Assembly: GCA_964472425.1 (NCBI GenBank)
Contig: CAYYLF010000003.1
Coordinates: 1 to 49,081 of the forward strand
Length of the DNA: 49,081 bases
Origin: an uncultured Muribaculaceae bacterium
Lineage (GTDB): Bacteria; Bacillota_I; Bacilli_A; RF39; UBA660
Direction of reading: 5' to 3'
Positions 98 through 34,259 of the stretch are shown in pieces. A program made the position numbers and the translations under genes. The notes below the pieces were generated by a model. It searched no databases. It was not told the DNA's origin and was given only the letters and a program-made list of their open reading frames with translations. Each line of letters opens with the position of its first letter. Position 1 is the first letter of the stretch.

Positions 98-166
98 TCC
101 CAAAACTTGGAAGTGAAATGCCTCAAAACTTGGAAGTAAAATGCCCCAAAATCTGGAAGTGATATT
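98..166 (+). repeat. Tandem array, 3 x 23 bp (consensus cccCAAAAcTtGGAAGTgAaAT), abutting the promoter of the AAA/DUF4143 gene
   Basis: Units 98-120 tcccaaaacttggaagtgaaatg, 121-143 cctcaaaacttggaagtaaaatg, 144-166 ccccaaaatctggaagtgatatt; a degenerate copy caaaactccggaagtg lies at 45-60. Confidence 0.95.
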
Positions 167-193
167 GTAATTATCACTTTTTTAGTGTATAAT
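165..193 (+). promoter_or_regulatory. SigA-type promoter
   Basis: TTGTAA (165-170), 17-bp spacer, TATAAT (188-193); AAGGAG RBS before ATG 218. Confidence 0.75.
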
Positions 194-217
194 TATCCTA
201 GATAAGGAGAATAATGA

Positions 218-1486
218 ATGGAATATGTCAAAAGGATAGTTGATGAAGAAATAGAAAAACAGCTTCAAATCGTCGGCGCACTCGCCATTAAAGGTCCCAA
301 ATGGTGTGGCAAAACGACTACAGCCAAGCAAAAAGCCAATAGCATTTTAGAACTACAAGACCCCGATAACCAAGACAATTATCTAGAGCTTGCCGACACT
401 AAGCCCTCTCTTCTACTAGAAGGAGACAAACCACGTCTTTTAGATGAATGGCAACTTGCACCCAAACTTTGGAATGCTGTACGATACTCTGTAGACAAAA
501 TAAGTATGCCCGGCCAGTATCTTCTCACAGGTTCGGCGACTCCCAAAGAAGATGCCTCTCAACATAGTGGAGTAGGAAGATTTGCTTTTATAAAGATGAA
601 ACCTATGACTTTATATGAAAGTGGTGAATCGAACGGAAAAATATCACTTGCAGACATTAAAAACGGGCAAGTAAACATCGATGGTATTAAAACAGACTTG
701 ACATACGAAAAAATAGCTTTTGCTCTTTGTCGAGGAGGATGGCCGAACTCCATTTTTCTAAAAGAAGATTTTGCCCTCGAAATTCCTAAAAACTATGTAG
801 ATGTACTATGTGAATCAGATATCTCACGTATCGATGGTATAACGCGGAATCCGAACCTCGCACGAACTATTTTGAAAGCATATGCTAGGCAAGTCTCTAC
901 TATAGGCTCCAACCAATCATTATTTCAAGACATAAGAGCTCAATACGGAGATATAAGCGAAAAAACCATAAGTGAATATTTAGAAGTCTTCAAAAAACTT
1001 TTTATAATAGAAGAAATTGAAGCATGGAATCCAAACATAAGAAGTAAAACTTCGATTAGAACATCACCCAAAAAGAGCATGATAGACCCCTCTATCGCAG
1101 TTGCAGCTTTAGGGTGTTCGCCAAAAGAACTTATGATGGATATCGAAACTTATGGGCTTTTATTCGAAAATCTAGTTGCTCGCGATTTGAGTGTCTATGT
1201 CGACTCAATAGGAGGAACATTGAAGCACTACCGAGATAGATACCAACTTGAATGTGACAACGTAGTACATTTTAAAGATGGAAGCTATGCTTTAATAGAA
1301 ACAAAACTAGGTGGAAATAGAATAAAAGAAGCAGAAGAACATCTATTAGAACTCAAAAAATTGATACTAGAAAAGGAACCTAAAATAGGAGCTCCAGCAT
1401 TCATGATGGTTATAACGGGAACAGACCTAGCATACACAACCGAGCAAGGAATACTAGTTGTTCCAATTGGATGTCTTAAAAACTAA
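218..1486 (+). CDS. AAA_14-type ATPase with C-terminal DUF4143 (PD-(D/E)XK-like) domain
   Basis: Walker A GPKWCGKT, Walker B LLDEWQ, LTGS sensor, DPS motif, G-L-F-E-N-L-V, HYRD...ECD...IETK nuclease-like C-terminus. Confidence 0.9.
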   Translation: MEYVKRIVDEEIEKQLQIVGALAIKGPKWCGKTTTAKQKANSILELQDPDNQDNYLELADTKPSLLLEGDKPRLLDEWQLAPKLWNAVRYSVDKISMPGQYLLTGSATPKEDASQHSGVGRFAFIKMKPMTLYESGESNGKISLADIKNGQVNIDGIKTDLTYEKIAFALCRGGWPNSIFLKEDFALEIPKNYVDVLCESDISRIDGITRNPNLARTILKAYARQVSTIGSNQSLFQDIRAQYGDISEKTISEYLEVFKKLFIIEEIEAWNPNIRSKTSIRTSPKKSMIDPSIAVAALGCSPKELMMDIETYGLLFENLVARDLSVYVDSIGGTLKHYRDRYQLECDNVVHFKDGSYALIETKLGGNRIKEAEEHLLELKKLILEKEPKIGAPAFMMVITGTDLAYTTEQGILVVPIGCLKN

Positions 1487-1511
1487 AAAAAGAAAGAGTA
1501 GGTAGTTAAAT

Positions 1512-2255
1512 ATGAAAGGTGTAATTTTAGCAGCAGGAAAGGGTAAGAGACTTTACCCATTGACGAAAGGAATACCGAAAGTGTTGTTGCCGGTATACGA
1601 CAAACCGATGATATATTATGCACTCGACTTCATGAAAGAAGCTGGAGTGAGAGAAGTGATGATAGTAATAGCCGAAGGACAAGAGGCGATATTCACAAAC
1701 GCTCTCGGCGATGGAGCAGGATTCGGAGTCAAAATCACTTACCGCGTCCAACACGAAGTAAACGGCACGGCCGGAGCCCTAATCGCGACCAAAGATTTCA
1801 TAGAAGGAGAAGATATACTTCTATACTATGGAGACAACATCCTTTTAGGACCGAACCTTGCCGAACTAGCCCGCGAAGGAATTGCGAACACTCACGAAAA
1901 CTGTGCTTCGATGTTCGCTCTCGAAGTCGCCAATCCATCTGACTATGGAGTCTTAGAAATCTCGAAAGATGGGGTCATCATATCTCTCGAAGAAAAACCC
2001 GACGTGCCTAAGAGCAACTTCATTGCTCCAGGTATCTACTTCTATCCCGAAAATCTCACGAGCAAACTAGATTCGGTCGAACTATCACCTCGTGGCGAAT
2101 ATGAAATGACCGACGTCAACAACGATTACCTAAAAGAAAATGCCCTTCGCGCCATCATCCTCCCTAAAGAGACCCTTTGGTTCGATGCCGTAAACTTCGA
2201 AGGACTGCTCGATGCTTCCAACATAGTTCGCGATTTCAAAAAAAACAAACTATAA
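1512..2255 (+). CDS. Sugar-phosphate nucleotidyltransferase, glucose-1-phosphate thymidylyltransferase (RmlA/RfbA)-like
   Basis: ILAAGKGKRLYPLT, K.LLPVYDKPMIYY, GDN, EEKP, SPRGEYE motifs; C-terminus shorter than typical RmlA. Confidence 0.85.
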   Translation: MKGVILAAGKGKRLYPLTKGIPKVLLPVYDKPMIYYALDFMKEAGVREVMIVIAEGQEAIFTNALGDGAGFGVKITYRVQHEVNGTAGALIATKDFIEGEDILLYYGDNILLGPNLAELAREGIANTHENCASMFALEVANPSDYGVLEISKDGVIISLEEKPDVPKSNFIAPGIYFYPENLTSKLDSVELSPRGEYEMTDVNNDYLKENALRAIILPKETLWFDAVNFEGLLDASNIVRDFKKNKL

Positions 2256-2357
2256 AAAGCCTAATGGTATTCCCGATTATCTTATCGGGATACCCCTCGT
2301 CGATTTGACTTATTGCACAAAATATAGTATAAATATATGGGAGAATAGTGATTAAAA

Positions 2358-2939
2358 ATGAAAAAGAAATTGTTGTTTATTATCTTCATGGTCGGAGTAG
2401 TCGTCTGTCTTTCTGGATGTGGAAACAAAGACGAAGAACAAAAGACCTACAATGTCGAAATAACCGTCAAAGATATGGGAGTAATCAAAGTCGAACTCGA
2501 CGCCGAGCAAGCTCCTATTACGGTCAAAAACTTCGTAAATCTCGTCGAAGATGGCTTCTATGATGGTCTCACTTTCCATCGCGTCATCGAAAACTTTATG
2601 ATACAAGGAGGAGACCCAAATGCTAACGGCACAGGTGGCTCCGGTAAGACCATAAAAGGTGAATTCTCATCGAACGGAGTCAAAAACGAAATAGAACACA
2701 ACCGTGGGACCATATCGATGGCGAGAAGCAACGACCCTGACAGTGCCAGTTCGCAATTCTTTATAGTGCACAAAGACAGTCCGCACCTAAACGGAGACTA
2801 TGCGGCCTTTGGCCACGTGACCGAAGGGATGGACGTAGTCGACAAGATTGCTCAAAACACTCCAGTACTAGTCGGAAGAGACGGTTTAGTTGCCAAAGAA
2901 GACCAACCGATAATCGAATCGATAAAGTTGATCGAATAA
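2358..2939 (+). CDS. Cyclophilin-type peptidyl-prolyl isomerase, lipoprotein
   Basis: Lipobox LSGC; FHRVIENFMIQGGDP, SMAR, SQFFI and AAFG cyclophilin motifs. Confidence 0.93.
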   Translation: MKKKLLFIIFMVGVVVCLSGCGNKDEEQKTYNVEITVKDMGVIKVELDAEQAPITVKNFVNLVEDGFYDGLTFHRVIENFMIQGGDPNANGTGGSGKTIKGEFSSNGVKNEIEHNRGTISMARSNDPDSASSQFFIVHKDSPHLNGDYAAFGHVTEGMDVVDKIAQNTPVLVGRDGLVAKEDQPIIESIKLIE

Positions 2940-2952
2940 AATGAGGTAAAAT

Positions 2953-3381
2953 ATGATAAACGAAGTTAAAAAACTGTACAAAAAATACGAAGAGATAATC
3001 AATTACGTAATCGTCGGAGGTCTCACCACCGTCGTCAGCCTCGGAAGCTATTATCTGTGTGTCCTGACCGTGTTCGACCCCGAAAATGTCGTTCTCTTAC
3101 AATGCGCAAACATCATCTCGTGGATTCTATCTGTTACCTTCGCTTTCTTTGCCAACAAAAAATACGTTTTCAAAAGCAAAAATGCGAATGTAGCCGAAGA
3201 AGCATCCAAGTTCTATGGAGCCAGACTCGCGACGTTGGGAATCGACATGCTATTCATGTTCTTGACCGTGACGGTCCTCCACTGGAACGACAAAATCATG
3301 AAGATAATAGCGCAAGTCGTAATTCTAATACTCAACTACCTCATAAGCAAATTCATCGTATTTATCAAAAAAAGCGATTGA
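2953..3381 (+). CDS. GtrA family membrane protein
   Basis: YVIVGGLTT start, 4 TM segments, NKKYVFKS and NYLISKFIVF motifs. Confidence 0.88.
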   Translation: MINEVKKLYKKYEEIINYVIVGGLTTVVSLGSYYLCVLTVFDPENVVLLQCANIISWILSVTFAFFANKKYVFKSKNANVAEEASKFYGARLATLGIDMLFMFLTVTVLHWNDKIMKIIAQVVILILNYLISKFIVFIKKSD

Positions 3382-3467
3382 CGAAAAGACCGAAAGGCCT
3401 TTTTTCTATGAATGAAATGACCGAAAGACGCCCATAATATAAAAGAAAAGAAAAAACTTTTCAAAAA

Positions 3468-3494
3468 TTAGCACTTTATGTTGACAAGTGCTAA
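3468..3494 (+). promoter_or_regulatory. CIRCE operator (HrcA site) overlapping the -35 of the hsp20 promoter
   Basis: TTAGCACTT-N9-AAGTGCTAA; TTGACA 3481-3486, 17-bp spacer, TGgTAAGAT 3501-3509. Confidence 0.92.
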
Positions 3495-3533
3495 TAAAAG
3501 TGGTAAGATTATATCAGAAAGGTGATGGAAAAT

Positions 3534-3926
3534 ATGAATTTAATTCCTAGAAAATATTATTTTGGAGATGATTTCTTTGACGATTTCTTTGAACCTGCCT
3601 TAAAGGACCAAATGAAATGCGACGTATATGAGAAAGATGGAAATTACCACATCGAGTTGGACGTTCCAGGATACGATAAAGAGGACATAAACCTCGAGTG
3701 TGACAATGGTTACCTCACTATTTCGGCAACTAAAACTTCCGAGGATAACGACGAAGGCAAAAACTACATTCGTCGCGAAAGAAGAATGGGAAGCTTCAGT
3801 CGTTCATTCTACGTAGGAGACGTCGAGCCTGAGGAAATAGAAGCCGAATTCAAGAAGGGTACTTTGACAGTAGTCGTTCCTAAAATCGACGAAAAACCTA
3901 CCAAAAAACAAATTACGATTAAATAA
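3534..3926 (+). CDS. Hsp20/alpha-crystallin small heat shock protein
   Basis: DVYE...ELDVPG..KEDI, RRER..GSFSRSF, AEFKKGTLTVVVPK; start placed at ATG 3534 after the AAAGGTG RBS. Confidence 0.93.
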   Translation: MNLIPRKYYFGDDFFDDFFEPALKDQMKCDVYEKDGNYHIELDVPGYDKEDINLECDNGYLTISATKTSEDNDEGKNYIRRERRMGSFSRSFYVGDVEPEEIEAEFKKGTLTVVVPKIDEKPTKKQITIK

Positions 3927-3927
3927 G

Positions 3928-3954
3928 AGAAAAGTTCCGAAAGGGACTTTTTCT
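3928..3954 (+). terminator. Intrinsic terminator of hsp20
   Basis: aaaagttcc-gaaa-gggactttt hairpin with T-run. Confidence 0.8.
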
Positions 3955-4018
3955 AATGCGCCACTTCGATTTGCAAATCTCCAAAAAATTGTTTTTATAT
4001 TTGACGTATAATTTATAG

Positions 4019-4136
4019 AAGAGAAGGCCATAATAAAAATGTAGATAAGTTAAGTATCTACACTCGGCTTCAAAACCGTTTCATTTGGCTCTTATGCCAC
4101 GAGTAAAGAGGGACACGAATTTGTCTCTTTTTACTT
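4019..4136 (+). ncRNA. Candidate structured small RNA of unknown family
   Basis: TATAAT at 4007-4012, hairpin tgtagata/tatctaca (4040-4062) and terminal hairpin agtaaagagggaca/tgtctctttttact; no ORF; lies between the hsp20 terminator and the tsaE promoter. Confidence 0.3.
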
Positions 4137-4219
4137 ACCAAAATAATTTACAAATTCGTAGTAAAAGATGTTGACCTTTATACAGAATATTGTATATAAT
4201 TGTTATAGGTGAGTAAAAA

Positions 4220-4681
4220 ATGGAAACAGAATATAAATACACTAGTCATAATGAACAAGATACTATGGAACTAGCTCAAAACATGGAATCAGAAAAATTT
4301 CCGAATATGGTCATCTGCTTGAAAGGTGAACTCGGAAGTGGCAAAACGGTCTTTGTCAAAGGGTTTGCTCAATCTTTGGGAATAGAAGAAAACATCACGA
4401 GTCCGACATTTACTCTTGTTAAAGAATATCACACCGGTGAAATGCCTCTATTCCACATGGACGTCTATAGACTCGAAGACGGTGACGACGGCTCTATAGG
4501 ACTTCAAGATTATTTCACTAAAGGCGGAGTAACTATTATAGAATGGTCCGACCTCATCAAAGACTCTCTTCCAGATGAAAGACTCGAAATTAAGTTCAAA
4601 GTTATCGATGAAGAAACGAGAGTACTAATCTTCACTCCATATGGAGAACAATACGAAGATTTACTAAGCGCCGTATTATAG
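4220..4681 (+). CDS. tsaE: t6A biosynthesis ATPase TsaE
   Basis: GELGSGKT, ITSPTFTLV, HMDVYRL, IIEW motifs; operon with tsaB/rimI/tsaD. Confidence 0.96.
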   Translation: METEYKYTSHNEQDTMELAQNMESEKFPNMVICLKGELGSGKTVFVKGFAQSLGIEENITSPTFTLVKEYHTGEMPLFHMDVYRLEDGDDGSIGLQDYFTKGGVTIIEWSDLIKDSLPDERLEIKFKVIDEETRVLIFTPYGEQYEDLLSAVL

Positions 4682-4741
4682 AGTTTACTCTATTTTTTTT
4701 TGTCGAAATGCGATATAATATAGGCGTTTGGAGGGATAATT

Positions 4742-5305
4742 ATGCCTAAACTTTTTATAGACACCCACAGTGAGATGGTTACAATAGCTATTGCAAAAGA
4801 TGATGAGGTACAAAAGATAGAAAAGAAAAGTGAACGTAGCCACAGTGAAGTCGTCGTCCCATCGCTAGACGAAATACTCAAAAAATCCGAAATCGAACTA
4901 TCCGACCTCGACGAGATAATCGTCGTAAACGGTCCAGGAAGCTTCACAGGCGTGAGAATAGGTGTGACCATTGCCAAAACCATCGCTTACAGTCTTTCGA
5001 TTCCGATTAAGACCATCACTTCGCTCGAAATGTATGGAGTATCGGCAGACGAAGACTTCGACCTCGTGACAATCGAAGACTCCAAAGGCGTCTATTCGGC
5101 CCACAAAATAAACGGAGAATACGTCGAATACATGTATCTAAGACGCTCCGAATTTGAAGAATATGTTCAAAAAAACAGATTTACCATTTTGCCTAAACGA
5201 CAAATAGACATACCTAAAATAATCGAATATGCCAAAATCAAAGAATTCACCAACCCACACAAAGTAAATCCTATATACATAAAGGAAATAGATGCATTGA
5301 AATGA
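4742..5305 (+). CDS. tsaB: t6A biosynthesis protein TsaB
   Basis: LFIDT, HSE, GPGSFTGVRIG motifs. Confidence 0.95.
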   Translation: MPKLFIDTHSEMVTIAIAKDDEVQKIEKKSERSHSEVVVPSLDEILKKSEIELSDLDEIIVVNGPGSFTGVRIGVTIAKTIAYSLSIPIKTITSLEMYGVSADEDFDLVTIEDSKGVYSAHKINGEYVEYMYLRRSEFEEYVQKNRFTILPKRQIDIPKIIEYAKIKEFTNPHKVNPIYIKEIDALK

Positions 5306-5712: not shown

Positions 5713-5721
5713 CTGAAAGGA

Positions 5722-8071: not shown

Positions 8072-8074
8072 TAT

Positions 8075-8980: not shown

Positions 8981-8986
8981 GACGTG

Positions 8987-9013
8987 AACTATTGCAAATC
9001 TAGCAATAGTTTT
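8987..9013 (+). terminator. Intrinsic terminator
   Basis: aactattgc...gcaatagtt followed by T-run. Confidence 0.7.
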
Positions 9014-9018
9014 AATTT

Positions 9019-9110
9019 TTAAAAAGTGTTCAGCAGAACTCTTAAAAAGTGTCCAATGAAAATCTTAAAAAGTGTTCAGTGAAATTCTTAAAAAGTGTCC
9101 AACAATTATT
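9019..9110 (+). repeat. Tandem array, 4 x 23 bp (TTAAAAAGTGTyCAr...), abutting the promoter of the second AAA/DUF4143 gene
   Basis: 9019 ttaaaaagtgttcagcagaactc; 9042 ttaaaaagtgtccaatgaaaatc; 9065 ttaaaaagtgttcagtgaaattc; 9088 ttaaaaagtgtccaacaattatt. Confidence 0.96.
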
Positions 9111-9137
9111 GAAAACAAATTAAAAATATGCTATTAT
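9109..9137 (+). promoter_or_regulatory. SigA-type promoter with extended -10
   Basis: TTGAAA (9109-9114), 17-bp spacer, TGcTATTAT (9129-9137). Confidence 0.75.
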
Positions 9138-9153
9138 AACGGTAGGTGATAAA

Positions 9154-10434
9154 ATGAAACTGACTGAAAAAGGCTACAAAAAGAGACTTGTAGATGATAA
9201 AGTAGGACGATACCTAGAAGTCTTTGGAGCAGTGTGCATCGAAGGACCCAAATGGTGTGGTAAAACGTGGACTGCCCTAAATCATTCTCAAAGCGTATCC
9301 TATATCACAGACGAAACTACCCAACGTCTCGCACTCATAGACCCCAAAAATATTTTTGAAGACGAAAAACCTCAACTGATTGATGAATGGCAAATCGTCC
9401 CCCCGATTTGGGATACTGTAAGACACGAATGTGACCGTGGTCACGAAAAAGGAAAGTTCATTCTGACGGGCTCCACCACACTCAAAAAAGATGAAGGAAA
9501 AAAGAAAGTACATCACTCAGGTGCCGGACGAATTGCGCGTCTCAAGATGCAAACCATGAGTCTATATGAGTCTGGAGATTCGACTGGCGAAATAAGTATT
9601 CGCGATATGTTAGAGCAAAAAGAAATACACAAAAGTACTGGAACAGTCGAATTGAAAACTCTAGCCGGCCTCATTGTGAGAGGTGGCTGGCCAGAAAGCA
9701 TAACTGCAAAAGCCGAAAACTACTCCCTGATTTCCAAATCCTACATCGATTCCATACTTAACATCGAAATCGAAGATGACGAAAAAGTCCGCGACAAAAA
9801 TAAAATGTTGATGTTATTAAAATCACTCGCTCGGAACGAATCGACAACCGTTAGCAACAAAACGATACTGAAAGATATCGAAGAAAACGAAACCGAAAAA
9901 GAAATCCTCGCCAGTCGTACCACTTTGCTCGATTACCTCGATTTTTTAGAAAGACTACACCTAATCGAAAACGAACCTGCCTACAGTGCTAACTATCGTT
10001 CACCTGAAAGGGTAGGTAAGGCATCCAAAAGACATCTTACAGACCCCTCTCTTGCCTGTGCCTGCCTCAATATGAATCGAGACAAATTGATGAAGGATTT
10101 GAACACATTCGGATTTCTTTTCGAAGCCTTAGTAGAAAGAGACCTTCGAATATATGTAGATTACCTAGACGGAAAACAATTCCATTTCCGAGACAACGTA
10201 AATGGACTTGAAGTTGACTCCATTCTAGAATTCGAAGACGGCGAATACGCAGCCATCGAAATAAAACTTGGCTACAACGAAGTCGATACGGCTATCGCAA
10301 ACCTTCTCGATTTTTACAAAGGAATGGTCAAAAAACCAATCTTCATGTGCGTAATCGTAGGTGTTTGTCCGAGTGCATATAAAGACCCTGAAACCGGGAT
10401 TTATGTAGTCCCCATCACCGCTTTAAAACCGTAG
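9154..10434 (+). CDS. AAA_14-type ATPase with C-terminal DUF4143 domain (paralog of 218..1486)
   Basis: GPKWCGKT, LIDEWQ, LTGS, HSGAGR, RGGWP, DPSLA, GFLFE, HFRD...EVD...IEIK. Confidence 0.9.
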   Translation: MKLTEKGYKKRLVDDKVGRYLEVFGAVCIEGPKWCGKTWTALNHSQSVSYITDETTQRLALIDPKNIFEDEKPQLIDEWQIVPPIWDTVRHECDRGHEKGKFILTGSTTLKKDEGKKKVHHSGAGRIARLKMQTMSLYESGDSTGEISIRDMLEQKEIHKSTGTVELKTLAGLIVRGGWPESITAKAENYSLISKSYIDSILNIEIEDDEKVRDKNKMLMLLKSLARNESTTVSNKTILKDIEENETEKEILASRTTLLDYLDFLERLHLIENEPAYSANYRSPERVGKASKRHLTDPSLACACLNMNRDKLMKDLNTFGFLFEALVERDLRIYVDYLDGKQFHFRDNVNGLEVDSILEFEDGEYAAIEIKLGYNEVDTAIANLLDFYKGMVKKPIFMCVIVGVCPSAYKDPETGIYVVPITALKP

Positions 10435-10499
10435 TGAACCACCAGTACGTTTAAATTACCTCTATAATGTGATATTATTCTTCTAGAAAGAGGGATATT

Positions 10500-11006
10500 A
10501 TGGACCAAATTAAAATAGGAAAATTCATAGCAGAACAAAGAAAAAGAGAAGGACTTACTCAAGAACAACTGGCCGACCAACTAGGCATAACCAAAAATGC
10601 CGTCTCGAAATGGGAGCGAGGACTCAGCCTCATGGACCTATCCTTACTAAAACCGCTCAGTAACATTTTGAACGTATCCGTAAACGAAATACTCTCCGGT
10701 GAAAAAATAGAAAAAGAACGAGCTCTAGAAAAGAGTGAAGAGACTATAATCGCTCTTTCCGAATTGATAGAACTTCGTACGATGAAGTATGGCATCATAG
10801 GAATGGCAGTCTTCTTCATGATATTGGTACTCATCTCGGTCTGTAAAGACGTCAACCCGGCTGCCCTCGTGAGTCTCATCTGTGCTTACAATGCCGTAAC
10901 CTTCATCACCCGCTATAACCTTAGAAAAGACAAAAGCGACCTCATCGCCGGTGTTCTATTCCTTCTTGCCGTCATGTGTAATACCATCTCCTTCATCGTT
11001 ACCTAA
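10500..11006 (+). CDS. XRE-family HTH regulator with C-terminal TM helices
   Basis: IGKFIAEQRK..GLTQEQLA..LGIT..AVSKWERG; three hydrophobic segments at the C-terminus. Confidence 0.88.
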   Translation: MDQIKIGKFIAEQRKREGLTQEQLADQLGITKNAVSKWERGLSLMDLSLLKPLSNILNVSVNEILSGEKIEKERALEKSEETIIALSELIELRTMKYGIIGMAVFFMILVLISVCKDVNPAALVSLICAYNAVTFITRYNLRKDKSDLIAGVLFLLAVMCNTISFIVT

Positions 11007-11098
11007 AACTACACAAACTTTTGTAATAGTTTTTTCACCTTCAAATTTGACAAACCGAGAAAAATATTCTATATTGGAAATGAAGAGGTGATAATCCC

Positions 11099-11898: not shown

Positions 11899-11938
11899 AA
11901 GTGAACAATTTTAGGGAGTTTTCAAAAATTGTTCACTT
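11899..11938. repeat. Palindromic element TGAACAA-N20-TTGTTCA, copy 1
   Basis: Perfect 14-bp arms aagtgaacaatttt / aaaattgttcactt. Confidence 0.9.
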
Positions 11939-11945: not shown

Positions 11946-12350
11946 TTACTCATCCAATGAATTTATTGCCAAAAAATCTTTCAACTTCAAATGCTCTACG
12001 ATACTCGTCGAATAATCCAACTCGTCATTCGTAATAAGAATTTTCTTTGAAGTATTGTCCGATATGCTATTAAAAGCTCTAAACTCTCTTTCGTACGCCT
12101 TCTCCTCAACCACGCTATAGGCGACTTGAATATAATACTTCTTGTTATCTTTAAAAGCGACGAAACCTATCTCTCTCTCGTTATCGTTAAACACTGTCAC
12201 ATTGTATCCCATATACAACAACTCATTATATACGATATTTTCTAAATTGTGAGTTATGTCGTATCGATTATCTATTCTAAAAATAGAGTTAAATGCCACG
12301 TCCGCATCGTACACTTTGTAATAATATGCCAACTCTTTCTTTTGTCGCAC
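11946..12350 (-). pseudogene. C-terminal (DUF4143) remnant of an AAA_14/DUF4143 gene
   Basis: LENIVYNELLYMGY.V....REI(G)FVA.K....YYIQVAY...ERE..AF..I.DN..K.LIT matches the family C-terminus; ATPase domain absent; no convincing start or RBS; conserved EID reads EIG. Confidence 0.8.
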
Positions 12351-12377: not shown

Positions 12378-12458
12378 TATACTGAACAATTTTACAAACA
12401 TCAAAGAAATTGTTCAGTATAGTGAACAATTTCAGTAAAATGATAAGACTTGTTCACT
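12378..12458. repeat. Palindromic element TGAACAA-N20-TTGTTCA, copies 2 and 3 in tandem (40-bp period)
   Basis: TGAACAA at 12383 and 12423, TTGTTCA at 12410 and 12450; copy 2 has 15-bp perfect arms tatactgaacaattt/aaattgttcagtata. Confidence 0.9.
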
Positions 12459-12518: not shown

Positions 12519-13449
12519 TTATCCGGGTTCTCGGATAATAGATTCTGGAAATTCGAGTATACTTTTCTTTATCTCGTTTATTTTTTCTAGGGATAACCCT
12601 GTGATGTCTATTATATCTTCTATTTCAAATTTTCTCATGAGCATCTTGCGAGCACTTGCTATTTTTTCTCTTTCTTGGCCCTCTGATAGACCTTCTTGTC
12701 GACCTTCCTCACGGCCTCTTTCTTCTCCTTCTTCCTCGCCGATGGCCTTCATCATGTCGTCGTGACTGTATATCAGGTATCTGTCCGCACTCTTCTCTAA
12801 GTTGTACGCCTTTTCTAATACTATTTTCATAATTTCACTTCCTTCGTATATTTCGTCTAATTCTTCGTGATTACTACTCGCGAATATGTACAACAAGTAC
12901 TCGAGCGAATCCTTCTTCTCTTTGATGGTATTATAATCCATTTTGAACAATTTATCTATGTCTATGTCTATAATGTTTGCCAAGTCCGTTCTAGGAAGTC
13001 GTAAGTCCTTTTCCATGATGGCCGAGCCGGCCTGCTCCGAACTGGTCATAAAGATTCAAACACACTTGATATACTCCTTTTATGTTTTGATAATCCGTCT
13101 TACTTCCATTTTCGGTTTGTCTCATGATGAGGTTACAGATATAGGAGGTATTCTTCTTTATTATGTACTTCCTGTTCGAACGATTGGCTTCTATGTTGAA
13201 GATATACTCGTCGCACTCGGCAATCAAGTCGACTTCTTCGTCTTTAATGCCGCTCGCCTTACTTATCTTTATGTCGAGAAGTCTGAAGTTTTTTTGAATC
13301 TTCTCGAGAATTACACCCGTCGCCTTATGTAGAATCAATTGGAGATAATCCCTCAAACTCTCGTCTCTCAACAGTTTAGTGACGAAGAAGTTGTGCAAAA
13401 ACTTCGCCTGTACGACTTTCTCATTTTCATTGTTCAACCTTATCACCAC
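12519..13449 (-). pseudogene. Frameshifted Rpn/PD-(D/E)XK nuclease-family (transposase-like) gene
   Basis: ORF 12991..13449 has D-L-I....NIEAN and QVCLN motifs; ORF 12519..13049 has the EEG-R-EEG repeats and IARKML...I..ITGLS tail; frames switch near 13020-13030. Confidence 0.8.
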
Positions 13450-14065: not shown

Positions 14066-15097
14066 TTAATTTGAAGATGAATTAGAATTCTGCTGACGAA
14101 CACTAGTCATCCAATTGTCCATATATCTCTCAATATCGCGTTCAATTTCTGTATCTACGACGTCGACTCCATATTTCTTGCGTAAATCTTGAATGACTGT
14201 AATTTGCAAAGTCGCATCGTCGGTCAATTTTTTAGTCGCAAGTGCGTCCTTGATTTCATCTTTTGCATCGACCAAAGACTTTTTATCTTTCTCTTCTTTG
14301 ACGTATACGACTTCGTATCCTGAGCTCGTCTTGACTGGAGTATTCGAAAACTCTCCGACTTTCAAAGCGTATACTTCCTTGTCGAAGTCATCGCTCCCGT
14401 AAGTACCCTTATTGATGAAACCTAAGCTTCCACCTTTCTCCTTGGTCGCCTCGTCATCCGACAGCTCTTTCGCCAAATCTTCGAAAGATTCTCCCTTTTT
14501 GAGTCTGGTGATGATATCCTTGGCCTTATCCAAAGCGGCATTCTCGGCTTCGGTTTTCTCCGTATCGGTCATCGTAGATTTGACCTCTGGAATGATTTGA
14601 ATGTGATACACATCCCGGTCTCCGACTATCTCATCTTTGTAATAGTCCTCGATTTCCTTATCTTTCAAATTGTCTTTGACATATTTCTCGATGGATTCCT
14701 GACGAAGATAACTCAATCGTGCTCTCTCCTCGAGTTCCTCTAGTGAAGAAATCCCCATCATCTGTTGCAAATAATTGATCAATTGAGATTCACTATAATT
14801 TCCGTCTTTGTCGTATCCGTAATACTGTTTTGCAGACTCGACGTAATTCTTCGCGTATTCCTTCGCATCGTCCAATTTGTCGCCGCTTTCTCCTTCGTAG
14901 ATTTTCTTATCTATCATATCCATCAAAGTAGAAAACGCAGTTCCTTTCATCTCGTTATATAAATCGTCGACGCTTATCATAGAACCATCTTCGAATTGCA
15001 CGACGGCCTGTTTACCATCTTCCAAAGTCGGAATAGTCTTTCCACATCCGGTGAGCATGGTTGCCATCAACACTGCTAAAATTATTTTTTTCTTCAT
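14066..15097 (-). CDS. prsA: PrsA-like parvulin foldase lipoprotein
   Basis: MKKKII...LTGC lipobox, HIQI, F.DLAKELS.D.ATKEKGGSLG, PVKT..GY; start at ATG 15097 after GGGAGG. Confidence 0.88.
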   Translation of the reverse strand: MKKKIILAVLMATMLTGCGKTIPTLEDGKQAVVQFEDGSMISVDDLYNEMKGTAFSTLMDMIDKKIYEGESGDKLDDAKEYAKNYVESAKQYYGYDKDGNYSESQLINYLQQMMGISSLEELEERARLSYLRQESIEKYVKDNLKDKEIEDYYKDEIVGDRDVYHIQIIPEVKSTMTDTEKTEAENAALDKAKDIITRLKKGESFEDLAKELSDDEATKEKGGSLGFINKGTYGSDDFDKEVYALKVGEFSNTPVKTSSGYEVVYVKEEKDKKSLVDAKDEIKDALATKKLTDDATLQITVIQDLRKKYGVDVVDTEIERDIERYMDNWMTSVRQQNSNSSSN

Positions 15098-28187: not shown

Positions 28188-28350
28188 CTACTTCTATAAT
28201 CTAATTATACCATCACGTTCAAAAGAAAGAAAGCAGATAAAATTGCAACAAACGTCCGTTCGGCTAATTCGTCAAATTTTTAAAATTCAAAAATGACTTT
28301 TCGCTTTACACAAACTTGTTCTCATGATATAATTTCTATGGTGATAAGAT

Positions 28351-29088: not shown

Positions 29089-29126
29089 AAATTGTAAAAC
29101 TGTCCATCATATAGATAAGGTGGAAT

Positions 29127-29849
29127 ATGAAAACATTTACTAAAATTTTGAGAGGTACCATTACTTCTCTTTTATTTTTGACGTTGACACTAGCTATTCT
29201 AGTGCAATTCATCTTCACGAACGTTCACTTGAACTATGCCAATTTGCCGAGCATGATAGATAGAAAAGAACTCCTTGCGACTGCTCTAGATACCCCGATA
29301 GAAGATGAAACTATCTATCGCGTGGCCGAAAGATACCTCGACGATTACATAAATTATATTTTCCACAAGAGAAGTTTCCCGAGCCTTCAAACGGTGGATT
29401 ACTCCGAAATTTCCGAAGAACAAATCCAATCGGCCAAAGAAGTCGTATCACACCTGAGCAAAAACATCAATCTCGAATATGCCGAGGTGACCGACCTTCG
29501 CGACCTAAACAACGTACTTTCGAATCGTGCCATCTTTCTGCTCGTAAACATTGGGGTTTTCCTCATATATGTAGTATCCTCCATCGTTCGAGGTAACTTC
29601 AAAAAGGGAACCCGCCTGCTGGCACTTTCACTAGTAGCAAATTCTCTGATATCTCTCGTTGCCAGTCGCATCTTGATTTCTAAATTACCCGACCTCGTAA
29701 GTCCCCATCTCTATACGTTTCTCTCCGCCATCGTAAACGCCCCTTTGAAATCGCAACTCACAAATCTAGCTCTCATCTATGGTGGCCTCGGCCTTTCTAT
29801 ATATATACTCATATTCTCGTACGACAGATTCCTGAAACCTCGAGATTAA
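29127..29849 (+). CDS. Hypothetical membrane protein
   Basis: One N-terminal and three C-terminal hydrophobic segments; AAGGTGG RBS. Confidence 0.75.
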   Translation: MKTFTKILRGTITSLLFLTLTLAILVQFIFTNVHLNYANLPSMIDRKELLATALDTPIEDETIYRVAERYLDDYINYIFHKRSFPSLQTVDYSEISEEQIQSAKEVVSHLSKNINLEYAEVTDLRDLNNVLSNRAIFLLVNIGVFLIYVVSSIVRGNFKKGTRLLALSLVANSLISLVASRILISKLPDLVSPHLYTFLSAIVNAPLKSQLTNLALIYGGLGLSIYILIFSYDRFLKPRD

Positions 29850-29914
29850 TCACCCGAACTTTTTTATACTAAATTTCGAACTCTAAAATATAATTATTTA
29901 GAAAGGAAGTTTTT

Positions 29915-30946
29915 ATGAAAAAGTTTAAGTTTTTATTGGTCATCGTGGCGGTTTTAACTTTCTGTGGATGTGGAAAGGCCAAATCGACTAATATCATAGA
30001 AAAGTTCAAAGATAAGGTAAATAGCACCAAAAGCTACCAAGTCACCGGTTCGATGGAGATAGTCTCGAACGAAGAAACCTTTACTTACGACGTTAATGTC
30101 GATTATAAATACGACGAATTCTACAAAGTCACTCTTCTCAACAAGACGAACGACCACGAACAAGTCATCTTAAAAGACGGTGAATCCGTATACGTCGTGA
30201 CTCCCGCTCTCAACAAAAGTTTCAAATTCCAAAGTGAATGGCCTGCTAACTCTAGCCAAAGCTACCTCTTAAAGTCTCTGCTTCAAGACATCGAAAAGAC
30301 CGAAAAACCGACTGTAGACGAAAACGACGACTACTACATAGTGAATGCGAATGTTAACTATCCGAACAACAATAGTCTAAAAACGGAAAAAATCTACTTC
30401 GACAAAAATGGCGAATTGAAAGAAGTGCAAATACTCAATTCCGACGGAAATGCCATCATCCGCATGAAATTCACCACCATCAAATACTCGGTAAAATTCG
30501 AAGACGACCACTTCTCGCTAGACTCCCTAATCACAAATTGTGAAGACGAATCTAGCTGCAAGACGACCGATGACTCCCAACAGACGAGTGCTCTTAAAGA
30601 CATCATCTATCCGCTCTACCTCCCAGAAGACACGCACCTTTCGACCAAAGACACAGTTCAAACTGATGCCGGAGACCGTGTCATCATGACTTACGCCGGT
30701 GCCAAACCGTTCATGATTATCGAAGAAGCTACCAAAGCTTCGAAAGAAATGCAAATCACGAGCGTTTACGGCGACCCTCTATTCTTGAGCACGGCTGTCG
30801 GTGCGATGGGTTCTAACTCCCTCGAATGGCAAAGCAACGATATGAACTATTACATCACGAGTTCCTACTTGACTCAAGACGAGATGAGAACTATTGCCGA
30901 ATCTCTAAACACCGCATCGGTAGTCGAAATTCAAAACGTAAAATAA
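29915..30946 (+). CDS. YdcC-like sporulation lipoprotein (LolA-like plus DUF4367-like)
   Basis: Lipobox FCGC; EQVILK...VYVVTPALNKSFKFQSEWP.NSSQ.YL matches YdcC; PLYLP C-terminal domain. Confidence 0.82.
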   Translation: MKKFKFLLVIVAVLTFCGCGKAKSTNIIEKFKDKVNSTKSYQVTGSMEIVSNEETFTYDVNVDYKYDEFYKVTLLNKTNDHEQVILKDGESVYVVTPALNKSFKFQSEWPANSSQSYLLKSLLQDIEKTEKPTVDENDDYYIVNANVNYPNNNSLKTEKIYFDKNGELKEVQILNSDGNAIIRMKFTTIKYSVKFEDDHFSLDSLITNCEDESSCKTTDDSQQTSALKDIIYPLYLPEDTHLSTKDTVQTDAGDRVIMTYAGAKPFMIIEEATKASKEMQITSVYGDPLFLSTAVGAMGSNSLEWQSNDMNYYITSSYLTQDEMRTIAESLNTASVVEIQNVK

Positions 30947-31077
30947 AATATATCGCTTAACTCCGATATATTTTTTTGGTCATTGCCGATTATTGAGAAT
31001 TGAAGAATTTACTAAAAACGTAACTAGCAAGTGTTTACTTTTGACCGTTATTAATATATAATTATAATGAAACGGAG

Positions 31078-32667
31078 TTGATAAGAGTGATACTAAAAAA
31101 GCCCTATGCTTTTCTCATAAAAAACTTCCGGTTTATCCACCTGATTTTGACCGGATTGATTGCCTATTTGCTCTTTAGAACTTACAACCTCTACAGCTTT
31201 TTTAGTAGATACGTTGGAAATGTCTACACTTCCTTAGGCGGAGCTCCTAGTAACTACATAACCATCTTCATGTTTCTAATCGCGATTATCATCATAGTAT
31301 TCTCGCTTGCGATGTACTTGCTCATGAAGAAAAAGGAAAAACCGAAGAATCTGTACATCGGATTGAGTACTTATTATATTCTGTACTTCATCGGTCTGAT
31401 ACTTTATTTCGTACTCTTCAAATCTATGGAGACGAGTCAACTTACCATTAGAAATGCGATGGTCATCCGCGATGTGACGTTCATCATCATGTTCCCACAA
31501 GCCTTACTCTTAGCCTTGAGTCTCATTCGCGCAGTCGGATTCGACATCAAAAAATTCAACTTCTCGAAAGATTTAAAAGAACTGGATATTTCGGAAGAGG
31601 ACAACGAAGAATTCGAATTCGTCCTCGGTGTAGACTCCTACAAATACTTCCGTTATCTGCGAAGAAGAGTACGCGAATTCAAATACTACATACTAGAAAA
31701 CAAATTCATGTTTACGATTCTGATGGGCCTCACTTGCTCGGTACTTTTGATACTGACCATTCTGAACTTCACAGTCTACAACAAAACGTACAACAAAAAT
31801 CAAAAGATTCATGCGAACAATCTGACTTTGGAAGTCAACAACTCGTATCTTACAAATGTCGACTACAAAGGCGAATCTATCACGGACGATAAATACTTCC
31901 TCGTCGTAAACATCACCTTCACGAACGACTCGGGATACTCGACCGTCTTGGACCTTCCTAGCTATGTCCTCGAGACCAAATCGGGTAAGATAACGCCGAC
32001 TCTATCTAGGAACTCCCATTTCGTCGATTTCGGAGCAGGCTACTCCAAAGAGAAAATCGAAAACGGCAAGACAGCTAACTACATTCTCGTCTACGAATTC
32101 GACAAAAGGGATGTCGCCAAGAAATATACCCTCCGCATAATCGACGAGGTCGAATACAAAGCCGGCACGATGAATTCCAAAGAAAAAGTAGTCGCCCTTA
32201 AACCGCTTTCGTACGTCGACCAGGAAGATGTCGGAACCTACAAAACGGAAGAACTGATTACCATGTACGACTCGATTCTAGGAAACACATCTCTGCTCAC
32301 CACTTCGTACGAATTTTCGAACAAAGTCACTTACAAATACGAAGCTTGCATTCGCGCCAACTGCCAACAAGTCACCGACGTCGTGACCGCGGACGTGGCC
32401 AAATCGAAAAAACTACTCGTCCTAAAGGGCCTTCTAACCTTAGATAACAGTTCGACCTTTGCCCGAAATGCCAAAACGTCGATGTCCTTCTTCGAAGCCT
32501 TTGCCGAAATCAGATACGACGACAAAATTGCTCCGGTCATAGACGCAACACCTCGTTCCATCTCCGAACAGTACATTCTTCAAATAGACGAAAAAGCCGC
32601 GACTGCCGAACACGTAGACTTGATATTCACAGTCCGCAACAAGAAATATACACTCAAACTAAAATAG
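31078..32667 (+). CDS. Hypothetical multi-pass membrane protein with extracellular Ig-like (DUF4352-like) domain
   Basis: 5 TMs, then FLVVNITFTN.S...I.NG.T...ILVYE beta-sandwich pattern. Confidence 0.75.
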   Translation: MIRVILKKPYAFLIKNFRFIHLILTGLIAYLLFRTYNLYSFFSRYVGNVYTSLGGAPSNYITIFMFLIAIIIIVFSLAMYLLMKKKEKPKNLYIGLSTYYILYFIGLILYFVLFKSMETSQLTIRNAMVIRDVTFIIMFPQALLLALSLIRAVGFDIKKFNFSKDLKELDISEEDNEEFEFVLGVDSYKYFRYLRRRVREFKYYILENKFMFTILMGLTCSVLLILTILNFTVYNKTYNKNQKIHANNLTLEVNNSYLTNVDYKGESITDDKYFLVVNITFTNDSGYSTVLDLPSYVLETKSGKITPTLSRNSHFVDFGAGYSKEKIENGKTANYILVYEFDKRDVAKKYTLRIIDEVEYKAGTMNSKEKVVALKPLSYVDQEDVGTYKTEELITMYDSILGNTSLLTTSYEFSNKVTYKYEACIRANCQQVTDVVTADVAKSKKLLVLKGLLTLDNSSTFARNAKTSMSFFEAFAEIRYDDKIAPVIDATPRSISEQYILQIDEKAATAEHVDLIFTVRNKKYTLKLK

Positions 32668-32696
32668 ATTACTCGACAAACGGGTAATCTTTTTTT
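32666..32696 (+). terminator. Intrinsic terminator
   Basis: agattactcg-acaaa-cgggtaatct plus T-run. Confidence 0.8.
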
Positions 32697-32709
32697 GACG
32701 ACGAATGGC

Positions 32710-32804
32710 AAATCGGCCAATCGGACGCCTATCGGCCACTAAACGACCGATTTTTTGGCCGATAAATAAATGTACACAAAAAAATTGGAAAGATATCCAA
32801 TTTT
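32710..32804. repeat. Direct repeat copy A: 54-bp dyad element plus terminator hairpin
   Basis: 32710-32763 matches 34163-34216 at 50/54 positions; followed by aaaattgga-N6-tccaatttt. Confidence 0.93.
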
Positions 32805-32814
32805 ATCCGAAGTA

Positions 32815-34104
32815 CTACGCATTTTCCACCTTCAATTTATACTTAGTAGAAGGTCCATTACCTACCTTTTCTATAACTCCATCATCTAAAAGTTCACTCA
32901 AAATGTTTTGGATGCTAGTCTTTTCTTTCTTTACGACATCTTTGAGCTCCTTACTGGTCGCAACCCCACTTTTTCTAATATAATCGACAACCAGCTTTTT
33001 GTCGCTAGTCGCATTACTCGGAGTTATACAAGGAATAGTGATGATAAACGAAGAAGCCAAAGCCTTGATTTCGACCTTGAGACCTCTCTCTTTATAGAAT
33101 CCCATTATTCTTCGCAATCCGCTTCCTATACAATCCACCCGTTTCAAACGCAAAAAGATTGCCTGTAAATATTTATTTCGCGAATACGAGACACCCGAAA
33201 GAGCATCCTCTAGACTGATTTTATAAAGCCCACCCAAACTGATAAATTCTATTTTGTTATTCTTATATATATTGATGATGCTCGGGCCATCCATCTCCAT
33301 AGACCTATGTATACACATGTTGAATAAAATCTCGCGCAAAATTGACTCGGGGAATTCCTCTATGTCCGTTCTCTCTGCATTGGCGACCATGCCATAAGTA
33401 GAAGAATTGAGTTTCAAATAATCGACTGTTTTATCGTACACCTCGAATATCGAGCCGGTAAATTCTTTGATATCCAAGAAGTTTTGCTTTAATTCGTCCT
33501 CGTACACGGCCACCCTAATAGGAAAATCATTTTGGTCGGACAACACTTTAGCTAAATTCGTATAATTGTTGTTCAAATCTCTCAAATGTAACGTCTTTTG
33601 GACGGACTCATTCTCGATATCGATAGATGCCTTATCGAACACAGGCTTTGCGTAGTTGAAAGTTAAATTCGCATCTGGACATATTGCCGTTTCGAACGAC
33701 AATTTCTCCTTATCTAACAGTAACTTTTGTATTATTTGAGGACTAGCTGGCATACTGCAACTTCCCGTTCGTACGTACACTCCTTCGTATCCTTTAGCTT
33801 TTAAATAGTATACATCGACTCCCTTAGAAACCTTTACTATGAGATACTCCTTACCAGAATCGGTCTTCTTTGGCTGAACCGAAATAAACATCGATGCATC
33901 CGGTGCAATCAGATTGTGAATTTGATTAGAAACCTTTTCCTCGACCTTTTTGGCATCTGCCAATCCCACGACATTCCCGTCGTCGTCCATCCCGATATAA
34001 ATCGTCCCACCGACACTCTCGTCACTGTTCAAAAAGGCGATTATTTCCTTGATTATTCCATCCGTATACTCCCTTTTAAATTCAGTCTGCTCGTCTTCTA
34101 TCAT
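32815..34104 (-). CDS. AlbA_2 (Schlafen-like) + HATPase_c_4/RecG-C-like + C-terminal wHTH protein
   Basis: EFKRE, IIAFLN...GGTIYIG.DD.G, Y.R.GS, LREILFN.CIHR, SRN..L..IF, GSGL.RI, IEKVGNGPSTKY; ATG 34104 after AAAGGAG. Confidence 0.88.
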   Translation of the reverse strand: MIEDEQTEFKREYTDGIIKEIIAFLNSDESVGGTIYIGMDDDGNVVGLADAKKVEEKVSNQIHNLIAPDASMFISVQPKKTDSGKEYLIVKVSKGVDVYYLKAKGYEGVYVRTGSCSMPASPQIIQKLLLDKEKLSFETAICPDANLTFNYAKPVFDKASIDIENESVQKTLHLRDLNNNYTNLAKVLSDQNDFPIRVAVYEDELKQNFLDIKEFTGSIFEVYDKTVDYLKLNSSTYGMVANAERTDIEEFPESILREILFNMCIHRSMEMDGPSIINIYKNNKIEFISLGGLYKISLEDALSGVSYSRNKYLQAIFLRLKRVDCIGSGLRRIMGFYKERGLKVEIKALASSFIITIPCITPSNATSDKKLVVDYIRKSGVATSKELKDVVKKEKTSIQNILSELLDDGVIEKVGNGPSTKYKLKVENA

Positions 34105-34162
34105 TGCCAATTCTCCTTTCATATACGACAATTGTATCACAAAAAAATATAAAAATAAACAA

Positions 34163-34259
34163 AAATCGGTCAATCGGACACCTATCGACCACTAAGCGAC
34201 CGATTTTTTGGCCGATTTGTGATCGAAACAATAAATAAAAATTGGATACTCTCCAATTT
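34163..34259. repeat. Direct repeat copy B: 54-bp dyad element plus terminator hairpin
   Basis: aaatcggtcaatcggacacctatcgaccactaagcgaccgattttttggccgat, then aaattgga-N5-tccaattt. Confidence 0.93.

Follow-up and report, generated by a model that had tools for sequence, protein, structure and literature searches.

Gene-specific upstream repeats in the AAA_14-DUF4143 (PDC-S01) family: candidate cognate operators of single-gene ATPase-nuclease loci

Which purpose does a short DNA repeat serve when it adjoins a single isolated gene, and is it read by the very protein that this gene encodes? This question is raised by a stretch of 49,081 nucleotides from an uncultured Muribaculaceae bacterium (GTDB lineage Bacteria; Bacillota_I; Bacilli_A; RF39; UBA660), contig CAYYLF010000003.1 of the GenBank assembly GCA_964472425.1, hereafter called the window, which forms contig 3 of a genome of 1.50 Mb in 103 contigs with 41.6% GC. 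A first-pass annotation had pointed out that two AAA_14-DUF4143 genes, a DUF4143 remnant and an AlbA_2/HATPase_c_4 gene are each accompanied by a noncoding repeat of their own, and it had proposed either that each protein binds a co-evolving cognate array or that the repeats are recombination sites moving the genes as cassettes. All four repeat sets are real, non-random and situated where they had been described, as seen by Tandem Repeats Finder (TRF), by repeat search and by shuffled sequences. We report here that gene-specific upstream repeats are a family-wide rule in AAA_14-DUF4143 genes (COG1373; PDC-S01) and that three of the four sets in the window belong to it.

Array 1 (98..166, + strand) consists of three visible 23-bp direct repeats of the unit CCCAAAACTTGGAAGTGAAATGC, which TRF records as a 23-bp unit present 2.8 times at 99-162 with 85% matches. 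Its last unit runs into a promoter-like site (165..193, +; TTGTAA, a 17-nt spacer, TATAAT), the -35 box of which at 165-170 overlaps the end of unit 3 while the -10 box lies at 188-193; here as elsewhere in the window promoter positions are derived from consensus scans only. AAA_14-DUF4143 gene 1 follows at 218..1486 (+; 422 amino acids), assigned by Pfam, by the PADLOC PDC-S01 profile and by an AlphaFold2 (AF2) model. Array 2 (9014..9110, +) comprises four 23-bp direct repeats of the unit TTAAAAAGTGTTCAGTGAAAATC with copies starting at 9014, 9037, 9060 and 9083 in the repeat search (TRF: 23-bp unit, 3.5 copies, 9019-9098), and it is located after the terminator (8986-9012) of the epimerase gene upstream and before the promoter-like site of gene 2 (9109..9137, +; TTGAAA, a 17-nt spacer, TG-TATTAT), in which the -35 box at 9109-9114 begins 4 bp past unit 4 and the -10 box occupies 9132-9137. 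AAA_14-DUF4143 gene 2 spans 9154..10434 (+; 426 amino acids; Pfam, PADLOC). Both genes belong to the group of paralogues called clade A below. They match PF13173 and PF13635 with 51.1 and 101.8 bits (gene 1) and 46.3 and 98.1 bits (gene 2) at cut-offs of 27 and 28.1, and the PADLOC PDC-S01 profile PDLC04790 with E values of 4e-57 and 4e-60. Regarding structured RNA over the arrays, Rfam gave 0 matches in the window at gathering thresholds. A segment of 138 bp is identical between window positions 56-193 and the end of contig 14 (G000:C14:~140-277, reverse strand); it covers the last 39 bp of an open reading frame (ORF), array 1 and the promoter up to the -10 box. On contig 14 this copy stands directly after a glycosyltransferase gene and is followed by a terminator-like hairpin, without a DUF4143 gene; possible explanations are an orphan array, variation between strains and a join made during assembly.

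The two arrays are not isolated cases in this genome. PF13635 matches 20 places, open frames of about 400 amino acids or longer being present at 18, and the window remnant comes in addition; the paralogues are 15-48% identical to gene 1 and fall into four clades. Clade A holds seven genes, on contigs 3 (two), 17, 76, 8, 18 and 5, with 23-bp arrays found by TRF on contigs 3 (two), 17, 76 and 8 and seen by eye as two imperfect units on contigs 18 and 5. The array on contig 8 reaches 19.4 copies of 23 bp arranged as an alternating 46-bp super-unit (G000:C8:20256-20700, locus L004), and the clade-A gene behind it has an N-terminus which is seemingly frameshifted at the P-loop. Clade B, with five genes on contigs 97, 21, 24, 22 and 2, carries 33-bp units, detected by TRF on contigs 97 and 21 and by eye on contigs 24 and 22, and three similar short sites seen by eye at the copy on contig 2:23767. 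The clade-B gene on contig 21, together with its 33-bp array, lies directly downstream of nusG (L005:105-2139; Pfam NusG/KOW). Clade C (contigs 13 and 2) has palindromes seen by eye, and clade D (contigs 25, 9, 22 and 34) has palindromes by eye on contigs 22 and 34 and less regular short repeats on contigs 25 and 9. The units of the seven clade-A paralogues differ from each other, and each unit core (at most 2 mismatches) is essentially confined to its own promoter, array 1 matching in addition the contig-14 copy.

In an automated count over the genome, upstream arrays precede 4/17 DUF4143 genes vs 30/1163 other ORFs (odds ratio 11.6, p 0.001). The count for DUF4143 genes is too low because crude ORF starts were used, and most of the 30 arrays before other ORFs are low-scoring or coding repeats. 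The statement that nothing comparable stands beside housekeeping genes is true for the window, as judged by TRF, but it does not extend to the genome: on contig 11 a 33-bp array of 3.6 copies (G000:C11:12335-12454) precedes htpG and a 36-bp array of 3.2 copies (14526-14639) follows it. The 33-bp unit on the htpG side resembles the clade-B units (CGAAAAAATG core) with no DUF4143 gene adjoining. A 38-bp array of 3.2 copies on contig 37 is a further exception to the DUF4143-linked pattern.

Beyond this genome, clade-A homologues were sampled as the best 80 of 594 relatives found in species-representative genomes with a 6-sequence clade-A alignment as query. They are 45-77% identical to gene 1 and come from genomes and metagenome-assembled genomes (MAGs) of Firmicutes, Bacteroidota, Spirochaetes, Actinobacteria, Verrucomicrobia and Fibrobacterota, with Clostridia, Bacilli, Bacteroidales, Prevotella, Spirochaetia, Treponema, Propionibacteriaceae, Verrucomicrobia, Victivallis, Hallerella, Dialister and a Methanobrevibacter MAG among the record titles. 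When arrays were sought within 350 bp before the start codon at loci with at least 150 bp of 5' DNA (n=74), TRF detected them upstream of 69/74 genes vs downstream of 9/76 (Fisher p 3e-26). The period is 22-24 bp in 72 of 77 loci and exactly 23 bp in 70 (74 homologues and three loci of the own genome); across the same 77 loci the copy number has a median of 3.2 and a range of 2.0-7.7, and the distance from the array end to the ATG has a median of 56 bp (10th-90th percentile 32-75). The threshold-free best self-match lag gives the same picture, being 23, 46 or 22 bp in 74/74 upstream regions and scattering downstream. Lags of the 23-bp type were also obtained for 38 of 41 extra clade-A loci (12 on viral contigs, the other 29 in a phylum-wide sample of genomes). 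Nine loci apparently belong to genomes reading TGA as Trp, with 3-8 in-frame TGA codons (L289, L291, L293, L294, L296-L298, L301 and L302); eight of these keep 23-bp arrays of very AT-rich units, and L297 is without one (best lag 18).

Similar rules apply to the other clades. For clade B, among 80 metagenome loci with 79 upstream and 75 downstream regions analysed, the best lag is 32-34 bp in 68/79, and TRF arrays occur upstream in 42/79 vs downstream in 5/75. Clade D uses tandem 38-bp palindromes; at 29 loci a palindrome with at least 10/11 arm matches is present upstream in 20/29 vs downstream in 6/29 (p 5e-4). Arrays with periods of 22-23 bp also stand downstream of some clade-B or clade-A genes (L172, L174, L176 and L086), which suggests a second DUF4143 gene in tandem. 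The survey of homologue flanks, proposed along with the initial observation, has thus shown arrays at DUF4143 genes to be general across phyla; at AlbA_2 homologues it turned out otherwise, as described below.

The third repeat set of the window belongs to clade D. A DUF4143 C-terminal (nuclease) remnant of about 134 amino acids lies at 11946..12350 (-). Its ORF has no Pfam match, and its labelling as a DUF4143 remnant is borne out by an E value of 8.8e-23 to the profile of the own-genome paralogues over the last 130 residues, by PADLOC (PDLC04787, E 4e-31) and by 67% identity to the intact contig-34 paralogue over residues 263-395 of the latter. Sites of the form TGAACAA-N20-TTGTTCA are found at 11902-11935, 12383-12416 and 12423-12456 (0.02 expected; at least three in 0/100 shuffles), and elsewhere in the 1.5-Mb genome there is one looser match only, on contig 12. 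The most perfect of the three, TGAACAATTTT-N12-AAAATTGTTCA at 11902..11935 with 14-bp arms, lies downstream of both the remnant and recX, and no counterpart of it was seen at the intact contig-34 paralogue. The other two form a tandem pair (12383..12456) just upstream of the remnant and read, in gene orientation, as two 38-bp palindromes 3 nt apart with arms AGTGAACAA... and ...TTGTTCACT, followed by TATATAAT. Since the contig-34 paralogue shows this arrangement too, built on a half-site of its own (AGTGAAAGATTTT, 12 nt, AAAATCTTTCAGT, then TATAAT), the upstream palindromes of the remnant would be operator-type sites of a clade-D gene that has lost its first ~260 codons. Clade-D homologues repeat the two-palindrome layout with different half-sites, one locus (L243) carrying the exact TGAACAATTTT of the window. 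Next to the remnant is a broken Rpn-family gene in two overlapping frames (12519..13449, -), for which the earlier description as a broken Rpn-like gene is confirmed by TIGR01784 (E 4.5e-12).

Which part of the repeat is specific to its gene? In one common register the clade-A unit reads C-g-C-[A/C]-A-A-A, six variable bases and A-A-Y-R-A-A-A-t-a-C. Its polarity relative to the gene is constant: the gene orientation scores better in 63/63 units and A outnumbers T by 699 vs 256, the A-rich strand being the coding strand. As the scoring profile was built from the same units, the base asymmetry is the independent part of this evidence. Between arrays, unit positions 8-13 hold only 0.05-0.21 bits; within arrays, with the promoter-proximal unit left out, minority bases amount to 3-7% at positions 11-14 vs 8-17% at the family-conserved A-tract 17-20. 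The bases that vary between arrays are conserved within them, which therefore argues for array-specific recognition and not for a generic A-tract architecture.

A protein part that could perform such a recognition is offered by the AF2 model of the gene 1 protein (80-sequence alignment; predicted local distance difference test score, pLDDT, 92.6; predicted template modelling score, pTM, 0.91). The model contains an AAA+ core (residues ~1-160), a helical lid (161-208), three helices with a beta-wing (212-288) and an alpha/beta domain (291-422). From topology only, residues 209-290 may be read as a winged helix with helix 248-260 as its putative recognition helix. Among the 80 clade-A sequences no variation occurs at G26, G31, K32, D76, E77, E317, E345 and K363, and D290 reaches at least 90% conservation; in 16 paralogues of the own genome G26, G31, K32, D76, E77, D290, E317 and E345 are invariant, K363 not being among the residues listed there. 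The proteins hence have a Walker A P-loop and, in the alpha/beta domain, the acidic and Lys residues conserved in a PD-(D/E)xK nuclease, the assignment of individual residues to the nuclease motif being a prediction from the model. The best Foldseek matches are archaeal AAA+/winged-helix ATPases (2fna, 2qen), Cdc6/Orc1 (1fnn and the DNA-bound 2qby), clamp loaders, the origin recognition complex and nucleotide-binding leucine-rich-repeat proteins; no sequence relative was found in the PDB.

Residue 249, the second of the putative recognition helix, has the highest mutual information (MI) with the unit of all 4811 residue-base pairs, namely 1.28 bits with base 12 and 1.13 bits with base 11. Lys249 goes with GG(A/T/C) at bases 11-13 in 13/16 loci, the other three having CGG or CGA, and gene 1 itself combines Lys249 with GGA; Asp goes with CCG in 6/8, Arg with TG(A/C) in 4/4 and Pro with nAA in 9/10, and Asn is found with ATC, CAC or CCA (5/5, no single triplet). 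These pairings are chemically sensible. Shared ancestry was taken into account by an independent-pairs test on a tree built without the helix columns, on which the minimum number of changes is 10 for Lys249 and 11 for GG. In the 6 supported independent pairs for Lys and GG both changed in the same direction in 5.7 on average and never in the opposite direction (median p 0.031). The pairs for Asp/Glu with CC (4 same, 0 opposite, 1 unchanged), for Arg with TG (2 vs 0) and for Pro with AA (2.1 vs 0.3) point the same way and are too few for significance. In clade B, residue 271 of the contig-97 protein (G-x-S-x-x-Y), a helix position neighbouring clade-A residue 249, is linked to unit base 17 as Arg/Lys with G in 13/13 and Thr with T in 20/21 loci; the clade-B MI scan gave no single clean top column, this pair having the second-highest z score.

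The reading which we prefer, at a probability of about 0.7 judged from sequence comparison, is that the DUF4143 arrays serve as cognate auto-operators, or as docking sites, for the protein which the adjoining gene encodes. The protein is built, according to the model and in this order, of an AAA+ ATPase, a lid, a winged helix and a PD-(D/E)xK nuclease. We infer that each winged helix would bind one unit, bases 11-13 of which would be touched by the beginning of the third helix, and that protomers would line up head-to-tail on successive units with a pitch of 23 bp (clade A) or 33 bp (clade B); clade D has pairs of 38-bp palindromes in place of direct-repeat arrays. Because the array ends at the -35 box, and in clade D reaches the -10 box, its occupancy would set the transcription of the gene itself, most likely through negative autoregulation, the nuclease being potentially toxic; cooperativity or an ATP-dependent switch might come from the AAA+ domain. 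The claim that each protein has a co-evolving cognate array is supported for the three DUF4143 items, where period, polarity and position are kept, the sequence varies and a residue of the predicted recognition helix covaries with the unit, with a partial replication in a hold-out set; it fails for the AlbA_2 gene, where flank repeats occur in 2/19 loci.

A number of observations weigh against this reading. The hold-out set comprised 38 loci, mostly only 44-51% identical to any training protein, and four rules fixed beforehand; these were correct in 6/19 cases vs a baseline of 14/133 when the residue of the locus was not that of the rule (p 0.022); the Pro rule succeeded in 0/6 and the Lys rule in 1/3. 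Asp was tied to CCG or CGG in 7/9 hold-out loci, a grouping noticed post hoc. As the hold-out replicated only partly, residue 249 is to be seen as part of the read-out and not as a complete code. Many protein columns correlate with unit base 4 by column-wise MI via shared ancestry alone, and only a few evolutionary events may underlie the clade-B covariation. Mantel tests by domain gave rho values of 0.19-0.26 in all domains and did not single out the winged helix, which was only slightly higher in a partial Mantel test with the variable hexamer (0.117). The recognition helix itself is assigned from model topology, the family-conserved A-tracts could act through DNA shape, and there are orphan arrays, namely the contig-14 copy of array 1 and the clade-B-like array before htpG.

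How far could the arrays serve a purpose other than regulating their gene? One alternative, which we regard as doubtful, keeps the binding by the own protein and sees in the array chiefly a platform for ATP-dependent loading or parking, or else a self mark, on which an inactive oligomer waits for a trigger such as infection. It would suit the AAA+/winged-helix architecture of initiator-type loaders, the listing of the family as defence candidate PDC-S01, and copy numbers of up to 7.7 in clade A, 8.7 at one clade-B locus and 19 on contig 8, which exceed what a simple operator needs; moreover, the difference between the periods of 23 and 33 bp is roughly one helical turn and would give the protomers a similar rotational offset. 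However, an operator has to sit strictly at the -35 box and keep a constant spacing from the start codon, as the arrays do, which a parking site need not, and clade D has ordinary palindromes reaching the -10 box. A bolder proposal that joins both functions is tentative and in our view unlikely: DUF4143/PDC-S01 proteins might be sequence-programmable AAA+ nucleases, each forming a head-to-tail oligomer, of 23- or 33-bp pitch and nearly equal rotational steps between protomers, on a private array that is at once its operator and a self-DNA dock keeping the nuclease poised but silent until infection, with one or a few recognition-helix residues resetting the specificity in evolution and at least a dozen orthogonal pairs per cell.

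The possibility that the repeats are recombination or mobility sites by which the genes travel as cassettes, or else replication origins of the iteron kind, is bound up with the fourth repeat set and with the comparison of filled and empty sites. The AlbA_2/HATPase_c_4 gene (32815..34173, -; Pfam; true start probably an ATG near 34105-34123), the product of which has a weak C-terminal Lrs14-like helix-turn-helix (HTH) match, is flanked by a 54-nt direct repeat with 93% identity between the copies and no third copy in the genome. The left copy (32710..32763) lies downstream of the gene, and the right copy (34163..34216) overlaps the promoter-like -35 box TTGACC at 34173-34168. Each copy contains five ATCGRNC heptamers, three forward and two reverse, which is why it had been called a dyad; the duplicated unit is longer than 54 bp, as a similar AAATTGGA...TCCAATTT hairpin follows each copy. 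Both copies and the gene are enclosed in a 1.59-kb cassette (32668..34258) that is absent between the same flanking genes, a DUF4352-like gene and gerQ, in related species (G011, G015, G003, G007, G012, G009 and G006), and the seven empty junctions contain one terminator hairpin only and no 54-bp element or att-like copy. In a survey of 19 loci (the window, 16 intact homologues of the same class and two own paralogues) flank repeats were found in 2/19, the only other one being L142 (G144:C39) with a 205-bp direct repeat of 97% identity. The 54-bp element is for this reason a feature of the cassette and not of the AlbA_2 family. It is plausibly a separate single-locus case, a putative operator carried in with the cassette, the operator reading being suggested by the overlap of the right copy with the -35 box. 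This cassette was also considered as a transposon and rejected: it has terminal direct repeats, but a recombinase is lacking, and the empty sites contain nothing like an att copy.

Empty sites, the comparison of which had been recommended, were thus obtained for the AlbA_2 cassette, and they exist for the gene-2 block as well. This block (8981..11098, +; boundaries approximate) contains the terminator, array 2, DUF4143 gene 2 and an XRE/DUF6442 gene at 10500-11006, and it is absent in three related species (G011, G003 and G015), in which recX comes immediately after the epimerase gene, 120-180 bp separating the two where the window has ~2.1 kb. The recX promoter (TTGACAAA) is recognisable in the filled and the empty state. 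No second array or direct repeat was found at the far boundary of block 8981-11098. The gene at 10500-11006 (+) encodes an XRE-type HTH fused to DUF6442 with weak matches to phage repressor and antitoxin families.

Mobility could explain the absence of this block in three species, the absence of the AlbA_2 cassette with its 54-bp direct repeats at both ends in at least seven, the 205-bp flank repeats of one AlbA_2 homologue, the orphan copy of array 1 on contig 14 and the presence of 20 paralogues in one genome, one of them directly after nusG. We nevertheless consider it quite improbable for the DUF4143 arrays, which are one-sided (9/76 and 5/75 downstream) and of fixed polarity; the missing block exceeds array and gene and lacks a second array at its far end; DUF4143 homologues are rare on plasmids (9/72,556 records) and in viral contigs (12 loci); and the paralogues are, at their level of 15-48% identity, old, so that no recent transposition burst is apparent. 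No integrase or transposase adjoins the modules among the Pfam matches of the window, in agreement with the first-pass annotation, the recombination-site alternative of which is not upheld since the arrays are upstream-only and abut the promoter. Other identities of the arrays were likewise rejected, namely a DUF4143 transposon or cassette with terminal sites (arrays upstream only, no adjoining recombinase), a CRISPR-like (clustered regularly interspaced short palindromic repeats) array (no spacers), a coding repeat (the arrays lie between terminator and promoter) and a dispersed element of the repetitive extragenic palindrome or miniature inverted-repeat transposable element type (the units are unique to their own promoter). 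Finally, it is very improbable that the arrays are generic promoter architecture (phased A-tracts, UP-like curved DNA) or sites of another host regulator with slippage keeping the units alike, for although the family-conserved positions form two A-tracts, the copy number varies in a way suggesting slippage and the hold-out test of the read-out rules was weak, the arrays travel with the gene across at least six phyla and three clades, a range which no single host factor spans, paralogues in one cell carry different units, conservation within arrays peaks where arrays differ from each other, and residues covary with bases in a chemically sensible manner in two clades.

The proposed arrangement resembles several known systems in part. 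Archaeal Orc1/Cdc6 proteins have repeated origin recognition boxes adjoining their own gene. Iteron plasmids encode a Rep protein that is autoregulated through ~22-bp direct repeats. In BrxR and CapW type systems a winged-helix regulator of the wHTH/WYL kind binds promoter repeats and controls a defence locus. DUF4143 proteins share with Orc1/Cdc6 (1fnn, DNA-bound 2qby) the sequence of an AAA+ domain followed by a winged helix, a likeness at the fold level only (template modelling scores, TM, 0.26-0.31); they differ by an added nuclease domain, by head-to-tail repeats of fixed period at the promoter and by many paralogues per genome. The window genes have no Pfam match to a Cdc6-type AAA or Cdc6_C domain and no PDB sequence relative, and nothing suggests that DUF4143 loci are origins. 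With iteron plasmids they have in common direct repeats about two helical turns apart immediately 5' of the gene for the presumed binder, yet the loci are chromosomal, the protein is an AAA+ ATPase-nuclease and no Rep family is among the window Pfam matches. In BrxR/CapW the regulator is a separate gene and the site an inverted repeat, whereas in DUF4143 proteins the DNA-reading domain is predicted inside the effector and the sites of two clades are direct-repeat arrays. The AlbA_2 gene has both Pfam domains of the COG2865-type AlbA_2 (Schlafen-like), HATPase_c_4 and C-terminal wHTH proteins and differs in its 54-bp flank repeat, which is no family trait and marks the 1.59-kb insertion in the window.

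The gene family as such is known, and genes 1 and 2 are members of PDC-S01/COG1373, the single-gene candidate made of AAA_14 and DUF4143. In the accessible text of a 2026 survey PDC-S01 ranks fourth by frequency among defence candidates across prokaryotes, with 9986 archaeal and 29,494 bacterial copies (~39,000), and is described as a very abundant ATPase fused to a PD-(D/E)xK nuclease with validation pending and neither experiment nor mechanism given (PMC12988326). DUF4143 is listed, in the part of the source available, as a PD-(D/E)xK family of unknown function (PMC3424549), and the preprint defining the PDCs has neither S01 nor repeats in its main text. Flanking repeats, a repeat-reading winged helix or autoregulation find no mention in the available text of PMC12988326, 10.1101/2024.01.29.577857, PMC3424549, PMC4406477 and 10.64898/2026.10.19.760177, supplements lying outside this coverage. 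No description of the arrays was found in the literature on DUF4143, COG1373, PF13635, PDC-S01 and repeats, for which supplementary files could hold detail. Three things appear new: the cis-element, the geometry that it takes in each clade (23 bp, 33 bp or palindromes) and the association of a residue with unit bases.

Further features of the window lie apart from these loci. A four-gene cluster at 39224-47155 (-) of DUF2397, DUF2398, an SbcC-like ATPase (1357 amino acids) and DUF3323-DUF2399 genes with a JetD_C match is Wadjet-like. It is followed by a UPF0158 gene with an adjoining PRiA4_ORF3-like gene at 47931-48958 (+); the 28-bp repeat of 2.4 copies at 48116-48186 is coding.

For the family, a near-universal, gene-specific cis-element abutting the promoter is the first concrete handle on what PDC-S01 proteins do with DNA. 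The arrays may help to explain how 20 paralogues can be kept in 1.5 Mb without cross-talk. For annotation they mark true start sites and help to spot dead copies, and they offer, with binding as predicted, a natural set of orthogonal protein-operator pairs.

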